Positions 1-27,351 of a DNA stretch of 64,000 bases are shown here, in pieces. The DNA lies in the NCBI GenBank assembly GCA_963827475.1, contig CAWHAZ010000005.1:800001-864000 (forward strand), read 5' to 3'. The position numbers and the translations under genes are program-made. The notes below the pieces were generated by a model. That model had not been told where the DNA came from. It saw only the letters and a list, made by a program, of their open reading frames with translations, and searched no databases. The stretch comes from an uncultured Chloroflexia bacterium. GTDB taxonomy: Bacteria > Chloroflexota > Limnocylindria > QHBO01. Each line of letters begins with the position of its first letter. The first letter of the stretch is position 1.

Positions 1-514
1 TCGCGTCGGCCAGCAGGGGCTCGCCCTGTACCGGGCCGCCGGGGCGCCGTTCGAGTCCGCAACCATCGAGAACGACCTCGCCCTCGCCTATCTGGCCATG
101 GGCAACCTCGAGCGCGCGACGGAGATGGCGTCGGGCGCCCACGAGCAATTCGAAACGGCCGGGGACGATCGGTTCCTGGCTGCCGTCCTGGACACGGAAG
201 CCCAGATCGCGCTTGCCGGGGGGAAGCACGATCGGGCATTGGCCCTGGCGGCCCGCTCGCACCAGCTGGCCCGGGACACCGGCAACCGGCTGGTGGAGAT
301 GCTGGCCCTGGTCACCGCGGCGCGGATCTCGCGGGCTCGCGGCGACCGTGCCGGTGCCGAGGCGCGCTACGCCGCAGCCGCGGAGTTGGCGCGGGCCGGC
401 TCGGGCCAGGGACGCCTGCGCGAGCTGCTGGGAGAGTGGGCCGAGCTGCGGGCCGAGGGCGGCGACTTCCAGGGAGCGTACGAGTTAACTTCAGAGGCCG
501 TCGCGGTCAATTAG
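1..514 (+). CDS. TPR-repeat protein, C-terminal part (5' truncated); probably an HTH/TPR regulator
   Basis: Frame is open from position 2 (RVGQQGLALYRAAG...ENDLALAYLAMGNLERA) to TAG 512-514, with helical TPR-like repeats. The N-terminus lies outside the window, so the regulator call is inference. Confidence 0.7.
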   Translation, partial: RVGQQGLALYRAAGAPFESATIENDLALAYLAMGNLERATEMASGAHEQFETAGDDRFLAAVLDTEAQIALAGGKHDRALALAARSHQLARDTGNRLVEMLALVTAARISRARGDRAGAEARYAAAAELARAGSGQGRLRELLGEWAELRAEGGDFQGAYELTSEAVAVN

Positions 515-517
515 GTA

Positions 518-547
518 TTGACAGGGCCAGTCCGGTCGGGTTAGGTT
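518..547 (+). promoter_or_regulatory. sigma70-type promoter TTGACA-18 nt-TAGGTT, overlapped by palindrome GTCAAT-N5-ATTGAC (506-522)
   Basis: Perfect -35 at 518-523 and TAnnnT at 542-547 in a very GC-rich background. The 18-nt spacing matches the infC promoter. Confidence 0.65.
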
Positions 548-553
548 TCGTCT

Positions 554-655
554 CGGAACGAACCGGTGTGGGCACCCGCCACACGGCGGACCGGTTCGCA
601 TACTCGGGGGACGAGGGATCGGGGAATGGGCACAGCTCCCCGGTCCCTTTGTTGT
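554..655 (+). ncRNA. putative ~100-nt small RNA with two hairpins, family not recognised
   Basis: Stem CGAACCGGT 559-567/ACCGGTTCG 590-598 plus CCGCC/GGCGG 576-589. Second 12-bp stem 614-648. TGGGCAC unpaired at 569-575 and 627-633. No credible ORF. Confidence 0.5.
614..655 (+). terminator. intrinsic terminator
   Basis: AGGGATCGGGGA / TCCCCGGTCCCT stem with one G-U pair, followed by TTGTTGT. Confidence 0.7.
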
Positions 656-659
656 GCGC

Positions 660-1244
660 CTACTGCGGCACCTGGGGAACGACCGGATCGACGAGCTCGA
701 ACCCGCCCTGGGCGTACACCGCGCCCTCCGGCTGCAGGTAGATCTTCATCGTGAACCGCCCGTACCCGAAGCCGGCGATCATGTTCGCCGCGGTGGTCTC
801 GTAGCCGAAGCTGACCGGCTCGGGCAGCAGCCGCTGGGGGCTCGGGGCCTGGAGGACGATCTCCTGGCCGGCCTCGAATCGCGTCACCGCGACGTAGACC
901 TCCGGCACGCCCGGATGGACGGGCGGATTGACCGAGTAGGCGAACGGATCGTCGTGGGTGAAGGCCGTAGCAGCCTGGGTCACGAGGTACGTGTCGGGAT
1001 CGATCGCGAGCCCAAAGGTGATCGGCAGCGGCCCGGCGGCCGGAGTCGGGCTCGGCTGCGCCGGGAGATCCGAGACGACCGATGCCAGTCCGACCAGGAT
1101 GAGCACCAGGCCGACCCCCAGCACCAGCGTCGTGCCGCGGCCCGGTCGTCGGATGTCGGGCCGACCGATGGGAGCACGCGGCCGGGCCCGCGGACGGGAC
1201 CCGACCGTCTGCGGCACGGCCTGGGTGCGCCGTCGGCGGCTCAT
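660..1244 (-). CDS. hypothetical single-pass membrane protein
   Basis: Arg-rich N-terminus, hydrophobic segment TLVLGVGLVLILVGLASVV and an extracellular beta-rich domain. TAGAGT lies 8 nt upstream of the ATG. Confidence 0.7.
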   Translation of the reverse strand: MSRRRRTQAVPQTVGSRPRARPRAPIGRPDIRRPGRGTTLVLGVGLVLILVGLASVVSDLPAQPSPTPAAGPLPITFGLAIDPDTYLVTQAATAFTHDDPFAYSVNPPVHPGVPEVYVAVTRFEAGQEIVLQAPSPQRLLPEPVSFGYETTAANMIAGFGYGRFTMKIYLQPEGAVYAQGGFELVDPVVPQVPQ

Positions 1245-1284
1245 CGGCCGACACTCTACGCGGACTCGCCGCTAGCATCGCGTC

Positions 1285-1891
1285 GTGGCCGATCCGCCCG
1301 CCGTCAACCCCGACGTCACGCCCGCTGAGCCCACCGGGGACCCGCCGATCCACGTCGACTGGGTCGACCCGTCGCTCCTGGGGGACGGTCGCCCCGGCCG
1401 ACTCGGGACTGACCATCCTGCCCGGCAAGCGGGGCAAATCGGTCAGGTATCCCGGCCTCGTGTATCGGCGCGATGCCCGGACCGATCTCGATCGGCTCCG
1501 GGGGCTGGGCGCCGGATTGCTGGTGCTCCTGGTCGAGGACGGTGAGCTCCGCCGCTGGGGGGACCCGGACCTGGTCGACCATGCCGCCGCCGCCGGCGTC
1601 CGCGTCCGTCGGATGCCGATCCGCGACGGCGCCGCCCCGCGATCGGCCGCGGCGGTCGATACCCTGCTCGCCGAGATCGACGAGGCGCGAGCCGAGACCG
1701 ACGTCGTCGTCGCCTGCATGGGCGGCATCGGTCGATCGGGAACGATCGTGGCCTGTGCCCTGGTGGCAGCGGGCCAGTCCCCCGATGGGGCTATTGCCCA
1801 CCTGCGGGCCGTTCGACACCCTACCGCGGTCGAAACGCAGCGACAGGTCGATTTCGTGGCGGCCTATGCTGCGCATCGGGAGGACACATGA
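1285..1891 (+). CDS. CX5R protein-tyrosine/dual-specificity phosphatase (CDKN3-like), frameshifted near 1405
   Basis: P-loop ACMGGIGRSG, PIRDG acid loop and ETQRQ Q-loop. The N-terminus (IHVDWV...GRLG) joins LTILPGKRG... if one G is removed from GGG at 1405-1407. Confidence 0.8.
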
Positions 1892-2829
1892 GCGAGCGCT
1901 GGATCTGTTCACGGTGCTTCACCTCGGCGGAGGAGGACCTTCGCTCCTGCCCGAACTGCGGAACCCCGCGCGGCATGTCGAAGACGTTCACCGTCAACGA
2001 CGGCCCCCCGTCTGCCTCGCAGCGACCACCGGCGCCTCCGTCTGGCGCACCCGGCGCGGCACCGGCCGCGGAGACGCCCGCTGGTCCCACGCCCGCGGCC
2101 CCCACGCCCGCAGCTCCCACGCCTCCGGCGGCTCCAACCTTCGCTGCGACCTCTGCCGCCGCGACCGGACTGTCCGGCGACCAGCGGTGGGTCTGCACCC
2201 GGTGTTTCGCCTCCAACGACGGGGCGGCGCGCGCCTGCGCGACCTGCGGTCTGGAGCGCGGCGCCGACCCCCCGCCTGACGCACCGGGCCAGTTCGCGGC
2301 GGCAACCACGCCGGCCGCGGCGGGGAGCGGGGGCCGCCAGTTCCCGTGGCGGATGATTCTCTACGGCGTCATCGGGCTGGTGGTGGTCGGCAGCACCTTG
2401 TTCTTCGCGGCCCGACGGGGGGACACCGGTGAGATCACCGATGCCGGCAACCTGAGCGTTCAGGACCTTCAGGTCGGCGACTGCTTCGACCTCACCAGCG
2501 GCGACACGACCGACGGCGGCGAGGTGAGCGACGTCCGCGCCATCCCGTGCGCCGAGCCCCACGTGTACGAGATCTACGTCGTCGCGGAGTATCCATCCGG
2601 CGAGCTTCCGTCCGACATCGACGAGGACTACACCGCCTGGGAGCAGGACCAGTGCGTCGGGGGGTTCGACACGTACGTCGGGCTCAGCTACGAGGAGTCG
2701 ACCTGTTGGTTCAGCACCCTGACGCCGACCGACGAGTCGTGGGATCAGGGCGACCACGCCATCTCGTGCTTCCTGCACAACTCGTCCGAGACGCCGGTCA
2801 CCGGGTCCGCGGAGGGCACCGCCCAGTAG
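1888..2829 (+). CDS. membrane protein with two RanBP2-type zinc fingers, one TM helix and a septum-formation-like domain
   Basis: WICSRC..CPNC and WVCTRCFASN-x6-CATC fingers, a Pro/Ala linker, a TM helix, then LQVGDCFD..IPCAEPHVYE..SW..GDHAISC. ATGA overlap with the phosphatase. Confidence 0.75.
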   Translation: MSERWICSRCFTSAEEDLRSCPNCGTPRGMSKTFTVNDGPPSASQRPPAPPSGAPGAAPAAETPAGPTPAAPTPAAPTPPAAPTFAATSAAATGLSGDQRWVCTRCFASNDGAARACATCGLERGADPPPDAPGQFAAATTPAAAGSGGRQFPWRMILYGVIGLVVVGSTLFFAARRGDTGEITDAGNLSVQDLQVGDCFDLTSGDTTDGGEVSDVRAIPCAEPHVYEIYVVAEYPSGELPSDIDEDYTAWEQDQCVGGFDTYVGLSYEESTCWFSTLTPTDESWDQGDHAISCFLHNSSETPVTGSAEGTAQ

Positions 2830-2830
2830 G

Positions 2831-5800
2831 TCAGTCCCGCGCCATCTCCGCGAAGCGGGCGAGGGCATTCGCCAGCCGCATCTCCTCCGGGGAGCGGACG
2901 CGGACGCGCAGGAGGTCCGGCGAGGCCACGACCACGGCAACGCATCGCGCCCGCGATGTGGCCACGTTCAGGCGGTGGCGGCTGTAGAGGAACGACATGC
3001 CTCGCGGAGCGTCCTCCGCCGAGGACGACGCCATGCTGTAGATCGAGATCGGCGCCTCCTGGCCCTGGAACTTGTCAACGGTGCCGACTCTCGCCTCGTC
3101 CGGCAGGAGCTTCTTGATCTCGCCGACCTGCGCGTTGTACGCCGCGACGATCACGATGTCGCTCCACCCAATCCGCTGTTCCACTCCCGCATCGTCGATC
3201 CAGGTCGCTCCGCCATCCACCAGGGAGCGCGTCAGGTCGGCGACGATGGCCGCCTCTTCCGGGGATTCGTTGTCGTTCCCGGCATGATCGACCGCCACCA
3301 TGCGTGGACCGGTCCCGGTGAGCGGGGCATGGCCGTGGAGTGTTTGGACCCGGAGTTTGGGCTCCGGTTCGAGCCGACTCTCGTAGAACACCTCGGAGGT
3401 GTAGTCGCACAGGTCGGGATGCAGACGCCAGGTCCGTTCGAGGAACAGGCCGCGGTCGTCGGCGATGGTCGCGGCCTCGCCGAGGAGATGGGCGAGCGCT
3501 GAGCGGTCCGCTCCCGGCGGGTGCGAGCCCTGGAGTGGCTGGTCGAGCTGCTGGGGATCCCCGAGCAGGACCAGTGACTCGGCCGATGGCGCCGCGGCCA
3601 GCACGTTGGCCAGTGACATCTGTCCCGCCTCGTCCACGAACAGGACGTCGATGGATCCGATCATGTCCTCGCGGGCCCAGAGCCACGTCGTCCCGGCCGC
3701 GATGTCCGCCGCCCCGGAGGCCAGCGCCTGCCGCACGTCCTCGTTCGTCTTCGCCGACTGCGCGGCTGGATGGACGAACCCGGGATCGTTCTTGCCCGGC
3801 TTCTGGATGATGCGGACGGGCATGTTCTCCTCGTCCGCGGCCTCCGCCAGCTTCTCCAGAAAGTTGCTGATGACCTTGTGGCTGTTGGCGGTCACGCCGA
3901 TCCGCTTCCGCGCACGGATGAGGTCCAGTGCCATCCGCGCGCCGCTGTAGGTCTTGCCCGAGCCCGGTGGGCCCTGCACGGCGAGGGTGGAGCGGTCGAG
4001 ACTCATCACCAGCCGCCTGGCGGCATCGAGGTCCACCTCGTCTGGCATCCGCAGCGGGGCGCCGGGCACCAGGTCGACGCGTGGCGGCCGTGCGAGGAGG
4101 AGATCGACCGCGGCCCGACGGGGGCTGTCCTCGGCGAGGCCGTGCTCCGCCACCGATTCGCCCAGTCGAAGCAGCGAGTCCTCCTGCGCATCGGTCCGGT
4201 AGTCCTCGTACGGGATGAGGGCGGTCGGGTGGGGAGCTGCGTTCCGCCTCGTCCGCCGCAGGTCAATGGTGTGCCCCACCTCGTCCAGGGCCACGATGTC
4301 GCCGGGATCCTTGAAGGCATCCTTGATGCCCCAGGTGTTGGGGTCGATGACGGTGGATCCGACTTTCAGGTCGTACTCCTGTGTCGGGAATCGGTAGCGG
4401 TGGACGAGCGCCTTGTCGGTCTCCTCGACAACGCCGACGTACTCGAGCCCGGACAGCGGCTCGCTGGCGTCGACGCGCTCTTCATCGGTCAGCTCGTCCT
4501 TCAGATGGAAGAAGAGCCACCACCAGCTCTTCTTCTCGCGACGGTGCCATGACAGGAGCTGAGCCAGCAGCCAACGGGCCTGCTGCTCTGCCGTGCGCCC
4601 TTCCTCCGGAACGTCAGTGGTGAGGCGATTGGCCACGGCGGCGACCACCATCTGTCGATCGTTCAGACCGGGGCTGGGCTCGGCATCGCGAGGTCCGGGG
4701 CGCGGTACGGTCTGGCCCGTCTCCTGGGCCAGCTGCTCGCGCCGTGCCTCGAGCCAATCGCGCAGCCGCTGGGTGCTGACCACGTCGTCGCGGTTGTAGC
4801 CCTCGATCCGTGCGAGGTGATCGGCGCCGGGCCGGTCACCTTCGCCGAGCTCGAGCCACTCCTCGAACGCAACGATGCTCGATCCAGCGTCGCGCAGGTC
4901 CACGGTGCGAGTGAAGTCGTACAGCGGCTCCAGCTTCTTGATGCCGTAGCCCTCGACGGACGCCCGGATGCCCTGTCGAACGACACGGTAGAGGTCGACC
5001 AGCGCGCCACCGCGCAGGAGGCGGTCGACTTCGTTCTCCTTGGTCGCGTGGCGACCCATGAGTCGTTTCAGGGCCGTCGGCTCGTACGGGGCGAAGTGAT
5101 AGATGTGGGCATCCGGATGGGTCCACAGCCGCGCCATGAACAGGTCGACCACTGCCTCGAAGGCGCGTTTCTCGCCATCGAGCGTGAACTCGCCGCCGGC
5201 ATCGCGCGACCAGATCGGATGCCACGCGCCATCTATGTCCATCACCCCGAACAGGTAGTCGAGGCCGTCGAGGTCGGCGTACGGGTCGCCCTCCATGTCG
5301 AAGAAGAGATCGCCTGATGACGGGGGCGGCAGGCCGGCCAGGCCGACACCCGGCTCGAGGGGTTGTGCGGGATCGGTCACGAGCTCGTAGATCATCTCCC
5401 CGCGTTGCCGCCCGTCGAACTGGACGCGCGCCTGATCACGGACTCGCTCGATGGCGCCGCGGCTGGGCCCGGTCAACGGGGGAGCCATCGGAAGTTCGAG
5501 CACCGCCAGCTCGGCCAGGGTCGTCACCGCGCGGCCTTCGAGCGCCTGACGCTGCCGTCGGCTGATGCCGGCAACCAGGCTGAGATGGTCGTCGTCTCGC
5601 CGCCGCCGGTTGCAAACCAGCCGCCAGCGGCAGACCTCGCAGTGGTCGACCGGCTCGGGGTAGGTTCCCGCCGGCGGGTACGTCGCCGCCTGGGCGGCCG
5701 GACCCACGGCGGCATCGAACCGCGACCGGGCGAGGCGGTAGTAGGCCATGTAATCCGCCACCCGCAGCGTGCGCAGCCCGCCTGCGGATCCGCCGAGGAC

Positions 5801-6334
5801 GACGTGGAGATGGACTGGCTCGACGCCCTGGATATCGGTCAGGAGGTCGATGTAGGTGCAGATCTGGAGCACCGCGCCGGCCTTCACATGGCGGGCCAGC
5901 TTGGTGTCGGCAACCTCGTAATGAAACGGGCCCCAGCGGCTCGGCCGCTCCAGCGCCTCGGCCCGCAACAGGAAGTCCGCGTGTCCTCGCCAGGTGCCGT
6001 CGAAGAACGTCGCCTGGTAGATGACGTCGGTCCCTGCCGCCATCGCCCGCTCGGTCTCGGCGGCCGCGGCACTGAGCCGGTCCCCCTGGTCCTCGATTGA
6101 CCCGTCGAGCGCGATCTTGACCACTGAGCGCCCTTCCGCCTCCAGGGTCTGGAGATAGCGCTCCTCGTGCTGTTCGCCGCGTCGGCGCAAGACGTCAAGC
6201 TCCGGATCGTCGAGGTGAGGCCGCTCGACGAGCCCAGCCAAGGCCGCCCGCTCGAGCTCGGTCAGGTGCTCGCACGCGAGGTAGCCCACCAGGTCGGTGG
6301 CAGAGTAGACGGGGCGGCCGTCGATCAGCTGCAC
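2831..6334 (-). CDS. TM0106-family RecB-like nuclease fused to an RNase H-like domain and an SF1 (DNA2/NAM7-like) helicase
   Basis: SATDL..C, ADFL..YEVADTKLA (PD-D/ExK), CEVCRW..C, FFDMEGDP, YNRDD, QGPPGSGKT, VDEAGQ, LGDPQQL, TVDKFQGQE, RLNVATSRA. Confidence 0.9.
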   Translation of the reverse strand: MQLIDGRPVYSATDLVGYLACEHLTELERAALAGLVERPHLDDPELDVLRRRGEQHEERYLQTLEAEGRSVVKIALDGSIEDQGDRLSAAAAETERAMAAGTDVIYQATFFDGTWRGHADFLLRAEALERPSRWGPFHYEVADTKLARHVKAGAVLQICTYIDLLTDIQGVEPVHLHVVLGGSAGGLRTLRVADYMAYYRLARSRFDAAVGPAAQAATYPPAGTYPEPVDHCEVCRWRLVCNRRRRDDDHLSLVAGISRRQRQALEGRAVTTLAELAVLELPMAPPLTGPSRGAIERVRDQARVQFDGRQRGEMIYELVTDPAQPLEPGVGLAGLPPPSSGDLFFDMEGDPYADLDGLDYLFGVMDIDGAWHPIWSRDAGGEFTLDGEKRAFEAVVDLFMARLWTHPDAHIYHFAPYEPTALKRLMGRHATKENEVDRLLRGGALVDLYRVVRQGIRASVEGYGIKKLEPLYDFTRTVDLRDAGSSIVAFEEWLELGEGDRPGADHLARIEGYNRDDVVSTQRLRDWLEARREQLAQETGQTVPRPGPRDAEPSPGLNDRQMVVAAVANRLTTDVPEEGRTAEQQARWLLAQLLSWHRREKKSWWWLFFHLKDELTDEERVDASEPLSGLEYVGVVEETDKALVHRYRFPTQEYDLKVGSTVIDPNTWGIKDAFKDPGDIVALDEVGHTIDLRRTRRNAAPHPTALIPYEDYRTDAQEDSLLRLGESVAEHGLAEDSPRRAAVDLLLARPPRVDLVPGAPLRMPDEVDLDAARRLVMSLDRSTLAVQGPPGSGKTYSGARMALDLIRARKRIGVTANSHKVISNFLEKLAEAADEENMPVRIIQKPGKNDPGFVHPAAQSAKTNEDVRQALASGAADIAAGTTWLWAREDMIGSIDVLFVDEAGQMSLANVLAAAPSAESLVLLGDPQQLDQPLQGSHPPGADRSALAHLLGEAATIADDRGLFLERTWRLHPDLCDYTSEVFYESRLEPEPKLRVQTLHGHAPLTGTGPRMVAVDHAGNDNESPEEAAIVADLTRSLVDGGATWIDDAGVEQRIGWSDIVIVAAYNAQVGEIKKLLPDEARVGTVDKFQGQEAPISIYSMASSSAEDAPRGMSFLYSRHRLNVATSRARCVAVVVASPDLLRVRVRSPEEMRLANALARFAEMARD

Positions 6335-26250: not shown

Positions 26251-27351
26251 ATGAGCACCCCGAGCGACCTGGCGACCCTGCTGGCCGAGGTGGCACGGGT
26301 CCAGGCCGAGGCCGAAGCGCAGCTGGCGGCTGCCGGTGACGCGGCCACGGTGGAGGGGCTCAGCCACGCGGTCCTCGGTCGCTCCGGCTCGCTGACCGCC
26401 CTGCTCCGCGGCCTGCGGGACCTGCCCGAGGCGGATCGTCCGGCAGCCGGGGCGGCCGCCAACGAGGCGCGGGTGGCCCTCGACGAAGCCTTCGCGGCGC
26501 GCCTGGCGCAACTGGGCGCCGGCGAGCTCGACGCACGACTGGCCGCCGAGCGGCTGGACATGACCGCGCCCGGCCGCCGGCCTCCGCTCGGCCATCTCCA
26601 CCCGCTCATGACGGTGGAGCGCGACCTGCGCGAGATCTTCCACGGCTTCGGCTTCGAGGTGTTCGAGGGACCCGAGATCGAGACCGACCTCATGAACTTC
26701 GAGCTGCTGAACATTCCGCCGGACCATCCGTCCCGCGACCTGTGGGACACGCTCTACGTCGCCGAGCCCGGGTCGGTGGAAGCCGGACAGCCACGCCCCG
26801 CGCAGGACGGCACGATCCTGCGGACCCACACCTCCCCGGTCCAGATCCGCGCCATGCGCGAGCTCACGCCGCCGATCCGCGTCCTCACGCCGGGGCGCTG
26901 CTACCGGTACGAAGCGGTGGATGCCGCGCACGGGTTCGAGTTCTTCCAGGTCGAGGGGCTGGTCGTGGATCGCGACACGAGTCTCGCCGACCTGAAGGGG
27001 ATGCTCGAGGAGTTCGCCCGCGCGATGTTCGGCGAGGGGACGCGGACGCGGTTTCGGCCCGGCTACTACCCGTTCACCGAGCCCAGCGCCGCGTTCGACA
27101 TCGCCTGCCTGGTGTGCGGAGGTCCCGGCTGCCCGGCCTGCGGACGGAGCGGGTGGATGACCATCCTGGGCGCGGGCATGGTCCATCCGGTCGTCCTCCG
27201 CAACGTCGACCTGGATCCCGACGAGTTCCAGGGCTATGCCTTCGGCATGGGGCTGGACCGGATGACGTTGCTGCGCCACGCCATCCCTGACCTGCGGCTG
27301 TTGATGAGCGCCGACCTGCGGTTCCTCACCCAGTTCAGCGGGGGGCGCTGA
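26251..27351 (+). CDS. pheS: phenylalanyl-tRNA synthetase alpha subunit
   Basis: G.LHP, NF..LN.P.DHP.R...DT, LRTHTSPVQIR, YYPFTEPS, G.AFG.G..R. Confidence 0.97.
   Translation: MSTPSDLATLLAEVARVQAEAEAQLAAAGDAATVEGLSHAVLGRSGSLTALLRGLRDLPEADRPAAGAAANEARVALDEAFAARLAQLGAGELDARLAAERLDMTAPGRRPPLGHLHPLMTVERDLREIFHGFGFEVFEGPEIETDLMNFELLNIPPDHPSRDLWDTLYVAEPGSVEAGQPRPAQDGTILRTHTSPVQIRAMRELTPPIRVLTPGRCYRYEAVDAAHGFEFFQVEGLVVDRDTSLADLKGMLEEFARAMFGEGTRTRFRPGYYPFTEPSAAFDIACLVCGGPGCPACGRSGWMTILGAGMVHPVVLRNVDLDPDEFQGYAFGMGLDRMTLLRHAIPDLRLLMSADLRFLTQFSGGR

Follow-up and report, generated by a model that had tools for sequence, protein, structure and literature searches.

What is the function of a segment of about 100 nt that lies between the stop codon of a tetratricopeptide repeat (TPR) protein gene and a gene converging on it? 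The segment stands near the start of the window, by which we mean the whole 64,000-nt stretch analysed here (G000:C5:800001-864000 of the source genome G000, a Limnocylindria genome of 70% G+C that is 90% complete). The first-pass annotation had described an orphan RNA with its own promoter, TTGACA-18-TAGGTT, a palindrome over the -35 hexamer and a convergent next gene, and had placed it in an undescribed TPR-regulator/small RNA module. This description is exact, and all its elements are found at its coordinates; the word orphan does not hold. Window 554-655 is a real, previously undescribed small RNA (sRNA) gene of about 100 nt, here called sRNA-1, and the module around it, which is supported computationally, is larger than proposed, with a peptide open reading frame (ORF), the regulator and two sRNAs. 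The sRNA-1 locus stands out beyond chance because its promoter signature is rare in the genome and because the RNA is conserved and covaries in relatives.

The anatomy of the locus is compact. The 3' part of the regulator gene occupies window 1-514 and ends with the stop codon TAG at 512-514, as given in the ORF list. An operator-like inverted repeat, GTCAAT-N5-ATTGAC with the core GTCAA-N7-TTGAC, spans 506-522 (arms at 506-511 and 517-522 by direct reading) and overlaps both the stop codon and the -35 hexamer TTGACA (518-523). An 18-nt spacer leads to the -10 hexamer TAGGTT, which is of the TAnnnT type (542-547). The predicted transcript runs from 554, a start placed by the -10 hexamer, to the end of the U tract at 655. 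Hairpin 1 (559-598) consists of an outer helix of 9 bp (559-567/590-598) and an inner helix of 5 bp (576-580/585-589), with the motif GUGGGCAC (GTGGGCAC; 568-575) exposed as an unpaired internal loop on the 5' side. The single-stranded linker GGGGGA (606-611) precedes the terminator hairpin GGGAUCGGGGA / UCCCCGGUCCC (615-647). Its G+C-rich stem (615-625/637-647) has 11 bp, or 12-13 bp when a G.U/A-U extension is counted, and its 11-nt loop AUGGGCACAGC (626-636) exposes a second motif, UGGGCAC (627-633). The U-rich tail TTTGTTGT (648-655) follows the stem directly, as in an intrinsic terminator, and a T/C-rich tract stands at this position in 17/17 aligned sequences. All these features lie on the plus strand apart from the repeat, which has no strand. 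ViennaRNA reproduces the fold of hairpin 1 and the terminator with a minimum free energy of -55.8 kcal/mol.

A BLAST search with window 500-660 against 40 relatives recovers the whole block in 14 of 17 congeneric genomes and in two other genera, with E-values from 3e-7 down to 8e-68. In the alignment, the conserved block opens at GTCAAT (506) and closes at the U tract, beyond which the sequences no longer align. Within the block TTGACA and TAnnnT do not vary, and the 18-nt spacer between them changes in sequence but keeps its length. A covariance model of sRNA-1 built from 17 sequences, R1, was applied to a family sample (family f1; 151 genomes in 24 genera, with a high-quality subset of 48 at completeness >=90% and contamination <=5%) and to a class sample of 50 f1 genomes and 100 genomes of sister families (f2, 49; f3, 44; f4, 6; f5, 1). 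R1 matches 131 of the 151 family genomes, 47 of the 48 high-quality ones and 22 of the 24 genera, and sRNA-1 is single-copy, with one match per genome in all but four genomes. Across the class sample, R1 matches 49/50 f1 genomes, 1/49 f2 genomes (weakly, E 0.003) and none of the f3 (0/44), f4 (0/6) or f5 (0/1) genomes. The counts from the BLAST search, from the family and class samples and from the rplX-rplE comparison below include a few unpublished genomes (G021, G068, G113, G147, G153, G160, G211 and G221), and the conclusions are the same without these; no sequence-level statement rests on any of them. An exact-pattern scan for the terminator hairpin, covering one genome per species of all prokaryotes, returns 118 stretches, and among the 80 matches listed the labels of 74 read Limnocylindria, Chloroflexota or Chloroflexia. 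Names on homologues of the regulator also read Candidatus Limnocylindria. The other six listed stretches (L228, L246, L252, L257, L262 and L294) sit in bins labelled Steroidobacteraceae, Candidatus Angelobacter or 'uncultured bacterium'; these contigs with the sRNA-1 terminator motif are probably mis-binned Limnocylindria contigs.

The substitutions within the RNA are those that the first-pass annotation expected, namely varying stems around a fixed UGGGCAC: the stems covary with compensation and the motif is constant. In the 55-genome alignment, which is fitted to the covariance model and thus favours the structure by construction, 16 of 25 pairs change on both sides and 96.3% of cells are paired. 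Compensatory changes are found in 9/9 pairs of the outer helix of hairpin 1 and in 4/5 pairs of the inner helix. The terminator stem is 98.2% paired and near-invariant in sequence, with 4 of its 11 pairs never varying and 3 compensatory. None of 500 shuffles reaches the observed values, slid partners are 30-56% paired, and an independent MAFFT/RNAalifold analysis of 17 sequences yields the same helices. GGGCAC occupies the hairpin-1 site in 48 of the 55 genomes and the terminator loop in all 55, and GGGG(G)A precedes the terminator in 48. Genus g2 differs in that hairpin 1 forms a simple stem, with the motif in its apical loop. The proposed Rfam check leaves sRNA-1 without a family: a scan of window 300-900 against Rfam 15 at E<=10 gives as its best match on sRNA-1 a spurious mir-185 (20.8 bits against a gathering threshold of 60).

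The promoter is equally distinctive. TTGACA occurs just 111 times in G000, both strands counted, and in 23 cases, that at 518 included, TANNNT follows at 17-19 nt, against about one case expected from composition; TTGACA-TANNNT is therefore a true promoter signature in this genome. The hexamers and spacing of the sRNA-1 promoter are those of a housekeeping sigma-70-type promoter, and both are conserved in relatives, as TTGAC is present in 54/54 loci with upstream sequence, TAnnnT in 52/54 and a spacer of 18 nt in 47 loci and of 17 nt in 5 (n=54), with a drifting spacer sequence. One locus of genus g2 (L051, G018:C3) lacks about 11 nt of the promoter; the nearest TAnnnT (TACATT) is only 7 nt away from its TTGACA, which breaks the -35/-10 geometry, and the RNA itself is intact. 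Elsewhere in G000, two TTGACA-TANNNT promoters on the minus strand, at C5:189364 and C5:186276, carry GAAC-N4-GTTC between their hexamers (TAGAACAGGTGTTCT, TAGAACATTTGTTCG), an arrangement that resembles LexA boxes.

The palindrome over the -35 hexamer is conserved as a DNA element. GTCAA lies exactly 7 nt 5' of TTGAC in 49/54 loci. In many genera, as in G000, the regulator ends with V-N-stop inside the repeat; in about 12 of 43 loci (for example in genera g3 and g31), the ORF ends some 15-35 nt earlier and the repeat is retained in non-coding DNA. The palindrome is thus free of coding constraint and conserved independently of the protein that it overlaps.

The gene that ends in this palindrome is G000:C5:799210-800514, which starts 791 nt before the window and encodes 434 amino acids. 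The protein combines an N-terminal XRE-type helix-turn-helix (HTH) with TPRs (Pfam TPR_12, 5.5e-14; HTH_3, a weak match of 3e-4, below the cut-off), and its AlphaFold2 model (predicted local distance difference test score 90.5) has an N-terminal helical HTH region and a TPR superhelix. The placement of the RNA behind a TPR protein extends to the relatives: an orthologue of the same HTH-TPR gene, full-length at 64-94% identity, lies directly upstream of the RNA in 43/43 loci that reach far enough. The regulator's own start carries a related arrangement, GTCAA-N7-TTGCC-N8/9-TAnACT-N7-9-ATG, in 39/40 loci, and its mRNA would be leaderless, as the TAnACT -10 element is only 7-9 nt from the ATG. 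The pattern GTCAA-N7-TTGNC occurs at two sites only in G000, the sRNA-1 promoter and the regulator promoter (C5:799170), and a palindrome search across G000 gives no further sites. The centre of the repeat falls near -40 in the former promoter and near -29 in the latter. By comparative logic, the regulator most likely binds the GTCAA-N7 repeat and controls both promoters, and the recurrence of the site at the regulator's own promoter is more telling in this respect than adjacency.

The association of repeat and RNA is confined to particular members of the protein family. Within the class sample, an orthologue is present in 50/50 family genomes, a homologue of 42-54% identity in 23/44 f3 genomes, and f2 proteins reach about 30% identity. 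Neither the f3 homologues nor the f1 paralogues (46-50% identity) have the palindrome, promoter or RNA downstream, or the operator or peptide ORF upstream. The one exception is G020 of the f1 genus g4 (56% identity), a divergent copy of the module with a perfect GTCAA-N7-TTGAC at its own promoter; downstream are a degenerate promoter, TTGACC-17-TACGCT, and a hairpin with a AUGGGCAC loop. Paralogues of the regulator are common in f1 (for example G006:C7:444201, G017:C61:4089 and G014:C1:206533); their upstream motif differs (GTCAAGTATTT-TATAGTC), and they are not followed by an RNA.

What could the TPR domain of this regulator sense? A micro-ORF of 12 codons, MSSATTGGGWPR, is encoded divergently on the minus strand at G000:C5:798975-799013, that is, 987-1025 nt before the window, between a LigD gene and the regulator. 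It is found behind a GGAG-type Shine-Dalgarno sequence, about 170-195 nt from the regulator start, in 48/48 assessable loci of 41 genomes (loci L051-L070 and L090-L119; one truncated locus is outside the 48). Most genera encode the 12-mer and others 37-41 amino acids, and the frame of L092 runs on to 22. The long forms have a basic N-terminus, a hydrophobic stretch, an Ala/Gly-rich junction and the same C-terminus (for example ...VLGVTNGNGWPH), and in 14 of them the N-terminal segment is signal-peptide-like. The conserved C-terminus reads T-G-G-G-W/F-P. Its invariant Gly is written by four codons, Pro by three and Ser by both TCN and AGY, and such synonymous variation indicates selection at the protein level. 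A complex prediction for the TPR domain with a 39-residue propeptide scored 0.13 against a mark of 0.32 and is counted neither for nor against binding. G000 also has nine matches to SBP_bac_5 (OppA/DppA-type), seven of them over the cut-off, which speak of presence only.

The second RNA of the module came to light when G000 was searched for hairpins exposing the motif's complement. The hairpin GGAGGCCGG-CGAGUGCCCACGU-CCGGCCUCC-UUUU at G000:C2:26572-26596, behind a panC-like gene, belongs to sRNA-2, which lies outside the window at G000:C2:~26553-26605 (region 26524-26610; loci L142-L171 and L179-L184). It is about 45 nt long in the genus of G000 and about 90 nt elsewhere, with an invariant terminal hairpin. 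Outside genus g1, the loci carry an additional 5' domain of about 50 nt, which covaries in 9 of 25 pairs (19 sequences). The promoter AAAGTACTA(G/C)TGAC-N16/17-TAnnAT is present in 34/34 loci examined, and Rfam gives no match on sRNA-2 for four loci at E<=1. A hairpin with the loop GUGCCC(A/G)C occurs once per genome in 139 of the 151 family genomes, 47 of the 48 high-quality ones among them, against 3 for a reversed control; in the class sample it is found in 48/50 family genomes and 0/100 genomes of other families. The phyletic ranges of the two RNAs are alike: of the 151 genomes, 122 have both and 3 have neither.

The invariant loop of sRNA-2, GUGCCCAC, is the exact reverse complement of GUGGGCAC (568-575), with a predicted duplex of 8 bp and -14.5 kcal/mol, and it would pair with UGGGCAC (627-633) over 7 bp at -11.8 kcal/mol. 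Deviations from the motif tend to keep this complementarity. Five of the seven exceptions at motif 1 (GGGUAC four times, in at least two genera, and GGGCGC once) still pair with sRNA-2 through G.U. In genus g24, where sRNA-2 displays GUGCCCG in 8/8 cases, sRNA-1 has CGGGCAC at site 1 in 4/8 and at site 2 in 7/8, and outside this genus site 1 is mostly UGGGCAC. The two sRNAs thus co-occur and have complementary unpaired regions, as a decoy pair would, with the pairing itself predicted. Of the two RNA-based ideas in the first-pass annotation, the multi-seed RNA fits better, given a complementary partner RNA, and the protein-titrating RNA of the CsrB/RsmZ kind is not supported, as neither CsrA nor Hfq is found in G000 at its 90% completeness.

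We propose that sRNA-1 is a regulator-controlled decoy with two sites for sRNA-2. A housekeeping-type promoter that overlaps the regulator stop codon would transcribe sRNA-1, and the intrinsic terminator would end the transcript. The same terminator would also serve the regulator mRNA, so that sRNA-1 would arise as its 3' end as well. The regulator would bind GTCAA-N7-TTGAC and GTCAA-N7-TTGCC and thereby couple the level of sRNA-1 to what its TPR domain senses, probably the divergently encoded TGGGWP-type peptide. The two exposed (U/C)GGGCAC motifs of sRNA-1 would then capture the C-rich loop GUGCCCAC of sRNA-2, which, by analogy with Gram-positive sRNAs, we take to be the seed of sRNA-2, and sRNA-1 would act as its sponge. 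The sequences show the anatomy of the locus, its conservation and covariation, the promoter signature, the synteny, the second operator-like site, the micro-ORF and a complementary partner of like phyletic range. From these we infer where transcription begins, that the regulator binds DNA and senses the peptide, that the two RNAs pair and which one is the decoy, and we rate the chances of the whole scheme as about even. Sponges such as SroC for GcvB and RosA for RoxS and FsrA, in which one sRNA mimics the targets of another's seed and titrates it, provide precedents, and sRNA-1 resembles them in offering two sites for the single loop of sRNA-2. In contrast to these sponges, the two RNAs here each belong to the core genes of the whole family and display invariant complementary motifs in loops, with a predicted kissing-loop geometry, and the decoy is apparently under a dedicated regulator that resembles a peptide sensor.

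Several observations weigh against the decoy proposal. The neighbourhood LigD-regulator-RNA-phosphatase is syntenic family-wide, so adjacency alone is no proof of a functional link. A perfect TTGACA needs no activator, so control by the regulator may be of either sign. The 12-residue forms of the peptide have no signal peptide. Inter-RNA covariation is thin since both motifs are nearly invariant. At the loop site, 33 of 55 genomes have C before GGGCAC, and only 6 bp remain there where sRNA-2 has A. sRNA-2 was sought as a complement, and a hairpin with a given 7-mer loop is expected, by rough estimate, about 0.2 times per genome; the chance of such a match among the few conserved-loop hairpins is, again roughly, a few percent. 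The single-sequence fold of sRNA-1 has a z-score of only -2.12, with 6 of 200 shuffles as good, and the fold of the opposite strand is no better than this (z -1.79). A generic consensus scan of window 1-3000 reports 0 promoters and 0 terminators, a result that is uninformative either way because the scan requires a TATAAT-like -10 element and a loop no longer than 8 nt, and the TAnnnT -10 and the 11-nt loop fall outside these rules. Six metatranscriptome runs have parts of window 1-1300, and the four that were mapped, from one rhizosphere study, consist of assembled contigs. The contigs cover the regulator, the RNA and the convergent gene alike (all 30 bins) and may include carried-over DNA. 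Transcription start, 3' end, strand and level cannot be read from them, and sRNA-1 as a separate transcript is a prediction.

The module has its closest counterpart in layout in the arbitrium system of SPbeta-like phages. According to PMC9232636, the peptide AimP binds the receptor AimR, which inhibits both DNA binding by AimR and expression of aimX. Both systems comprise an HTH-TPR receptor, an adjoining peptide gene and a short RNA with a presumed operator at its promoter. However, arbitrium belongs to phages and Firmicutes, whereas the present module is chromosomal, part of the family core and found in Chloroflexota. The peptide gene lies divergently upstream here and between receptor and RNA in arbitrium, and the operator here has 5-bp arms spaced 7 nt apart over a perfect -35 hexamer and comes with a conserved partner RNA. 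A sequence search gave no match that relates the regulator to AimR.

A wider comparison is with the RRNPP(A) family (PlcR/PapR, NprR, Rap/Phr, Rgg/SHP and ComR), which PMC9765709 and PMC12700828 describe as a family of Firmicutes, or Gram-positives, and their viruses. The regulator shares with it an XRE-type HTH and a TPR superhelix. Its weak sequence matches include PlcR, ComR and RapH (E 0.004-0.5). In Foldseek, generic TPR proteins (LGN/Pins) come first, ahead of PlcR, whose chains rank 24 and 31 over about 314 columns (template modelling scores 0.37/0.56), and of a Rap chain at rank 49. The adjoining ORF of about 40 residues, with a signal-peptide-like N-terminus and a conserved extreme C-terminus, is a further likeness; PapR, Phr and AimP share this layout. 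Unlike in RRNPP(A) systems, many genera here encode a 12-residue peptide without a signal peptide, and the lineage is Chloroflexota. By analogy, the module would work like an RRNPP system with a layout closest to that of arbitrium; we do not assign it to RRNPP as a member, and peptide binding is predicted. A full-text search for RRNPP together with Chloroflexi gave nothing related, judged by title.

These likenesses suggest a more ambitious scheme, namely a chromosomal, family-wide circuit of the RRNPP/arbitrium type in Chloroflexota, in which a peptide and its HTH-TPR receptor govern a decoy sRNA that titrates a core sRNA and so resets a post-transcriptional regulon. The sole direct outputs of the receptor would be its own gene and the decoy sRNA, and the peptide would be exported by Sec in some genera and remain a bare 12-mer in others. 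We put this full circuit forward tentatively, as a reading with well under an even chance.

If sRNA-2 is titrated, which mRNAs does it control, and could the roles instead be reversed? A target search that used rough gene calls (2038 ORFs in G000) yielded no targets for either RNA. GUGCCCA has 36 sites within +/-150 nt of the 2038 predicted starts in a flat distribution without enrichment, and UGGGCAC is without positional enrichment before starts in G000; a small motif peak at 0 to +25 reflects the start codon plus Gly/Pro codons. The duplex energies of sRNA-1 against the 5' regions of the 2038 genes (best -29.1, mean -19.7, standard deviation 2.4) contain no outlier and are uninformative because the genome has 70% G+C. 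The most promising sRNA-2 site, GGAGGUGGGCACGUG, at the rplX-rplE junction was rejected, being present in 2 of 29 orthologous loci. As a separate observation, the EF-Ts gene tsf (G000:C5:907336, minus strand) begins with AUGGGCAC, and 7 nt of this start would match the loop of sRNA-2. Because complementarity is symmetric, sRNA-1 could itself regulate mRNAs with GUGCCCA-like sites, with sRNA-2 as its antagonist or sponge, or both RNAs could act on a common target. The conserved GGGGGA (48/55) and the near-invariant terminator stem, which suggest contacts of sRNA-1 beyond its two motifs, speak for this alternative. However, GUGCCCA is not enriched before starts, the sRNA-1 duplex scores are without an outlier, and an effector role for sRNA-2 fits its C-rich loop, as Gram-positive sRNAs such as RsaE/RoxS and 6C usually have their seeds in loops of this kind. 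We therefore regard the reversal of roles as an improbable, if serious, competitor.

The motif could alternatively address a protein, with sRNA-1 as a titrator of the CsrB/RsmZ type whose target recognises (U/C)GGGCAC and with the match to sRNA-2 either coincidental or due to a shared binder. A short motif that is invariant and repeated in unpaired positions is what sRNA-1 has in common with CsrB/RsmZ, and the sequence of the terminator stem is also invariant beyond what pairing demands. On the other hand, sRNA-1 has two repeats only, and its GGGCAC loops are without the GGA core of CsrA sites; neither CsrA nor Hfq was found in the 90%-complete G000. The variants of motif 1 are exactly those that preserve Watson-Crick or wobble pairing with GUGCCC, and sRNA-2 displays the complement rather than the same motif, which argues against a common sequence-specific binder. 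A protein target is thus a distinctly poor prospect.

Is the region simply the structured 3' untranslated region (UTR) or terminator of the regulator mRNA, perhaps bidirectional, with neither a promoter of its own nor a function in trans? The regulator mRNA must enter the hairpins, as there is no terminator between its stop codon and them, and metatranscriptome contigs link the regulator gene to 653/656 in 2 of the 4 mapped runs. Contigs end at 653/656 in two runs and others begin at 627, which is no proof of a 3' end because the inverted repeat itself can break assemblies. Invariant loops, a fixed TTGACA-TAnnnT spacing and family-wide identity amid decaying flanks are not kept by terminators or 3' UTRs, and a bidirectional role fits poorly with the 13 of 44 RNA-bearing loci that have no match to the convergent gene. 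Such a passive 3' UTR is therefore very unlikely. An RNA of this origin may nonetheless have its own promoter, as do the type I 3'-UTR sRNAs DapZ and MicL, whose promoter likewise sits at the extreme 3' end of the coding gene before them and which share the terminator of that gene; unlike in these cases, the promoter of sRNA-1 overlaps the stop codon and a palindrome, and the parent gene is the presumed regulator. That the transcript is a short mRNA for a small peptide, as the ATG at 626 after GGGGA and the 62-codon frame open at 566-754 in G000 might suggest, is hardly credible, since most genera have GCG, UCG or GGG in place of the ATG, length differences in loop and linker are not multiples of three, no frame is conserved in 55 sequences, conservation ends at the U tract inside the 566-754 frame, and the substitutions are helix-like.

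The genes around the module recur in a constant order, which is LigD, the regulator, the RNA, often a small convergent ORF and then a phosphatase resembling protein tyrosine phosphatases (PTP). LigD (G000:C5:796077-798881, plus strand; 934 amino acids with domains for phosphoesterase, ligase and primase-polymerase) is the immediate upstream neighbour of the micro-ORF and the regulator, and a LigD match is found upstream in 18 of the 20 loci that extend about 2.5 kb in that direction. Behind the RNA, the convergent ORF at window 660-1244 (minus strand) encodes 194 amino acids without a Pfam or NCBIfam family and is a neighbour outside the module, with tblastn matches in 31/44 loci at 29-48% identity outside the genus. 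It is followed by a dual-specificity/PTP-like phosphatase (1460-1891, plus strand), a protein with a zinc ribbon and a Septum_form domain (1888-2829, plus strand) and an ORF of 1167 amino acids (2831-6334, minus strand). Between the micro-ORF and the regulator operator, at G000:C5:~799090-799150, lies a further conserved element, CAATGACCCATCGGTAC ... GGTACTTTCGG, the reverse complement of which, CCGAAAGTAC, is the 10-mer that precedes the -35 region of sRNA-2 (CGAAAGTACT). Another regulator may use this CAATGACCCATCGGTAC/GGTACTTTCGG element as a shared site, or the element may be the promoter of the micro-ORF.

What would a regulator-controlled decoy RNA mean for this lineage? The small RNAs of Chloroflexota are almost unexplored, and a full-text search found no literature that joins Limnocylindria with small RNA. 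sRNA-1 and sRNA-2 are two new single-copy RNA families with mutually complementary invariant loops, near-universal in a widespread, uncultured Limnocylindria family, and both alignments are ready for covariance models and suitable as new RNA families. An apparent peptide-receptor pair adjoins sRNA-1. If the proposed scheme is true, two RNAs of about 45-100 nt, two 17-bp DNA sites and peptides of 7-12 amino acids would provide in vitro reagents for a lineage that is uncultured, RRNPP-like peptide sensing would reach another phylum, and the module would exemplify a sensor with an RNA decoy as its dedicated output.

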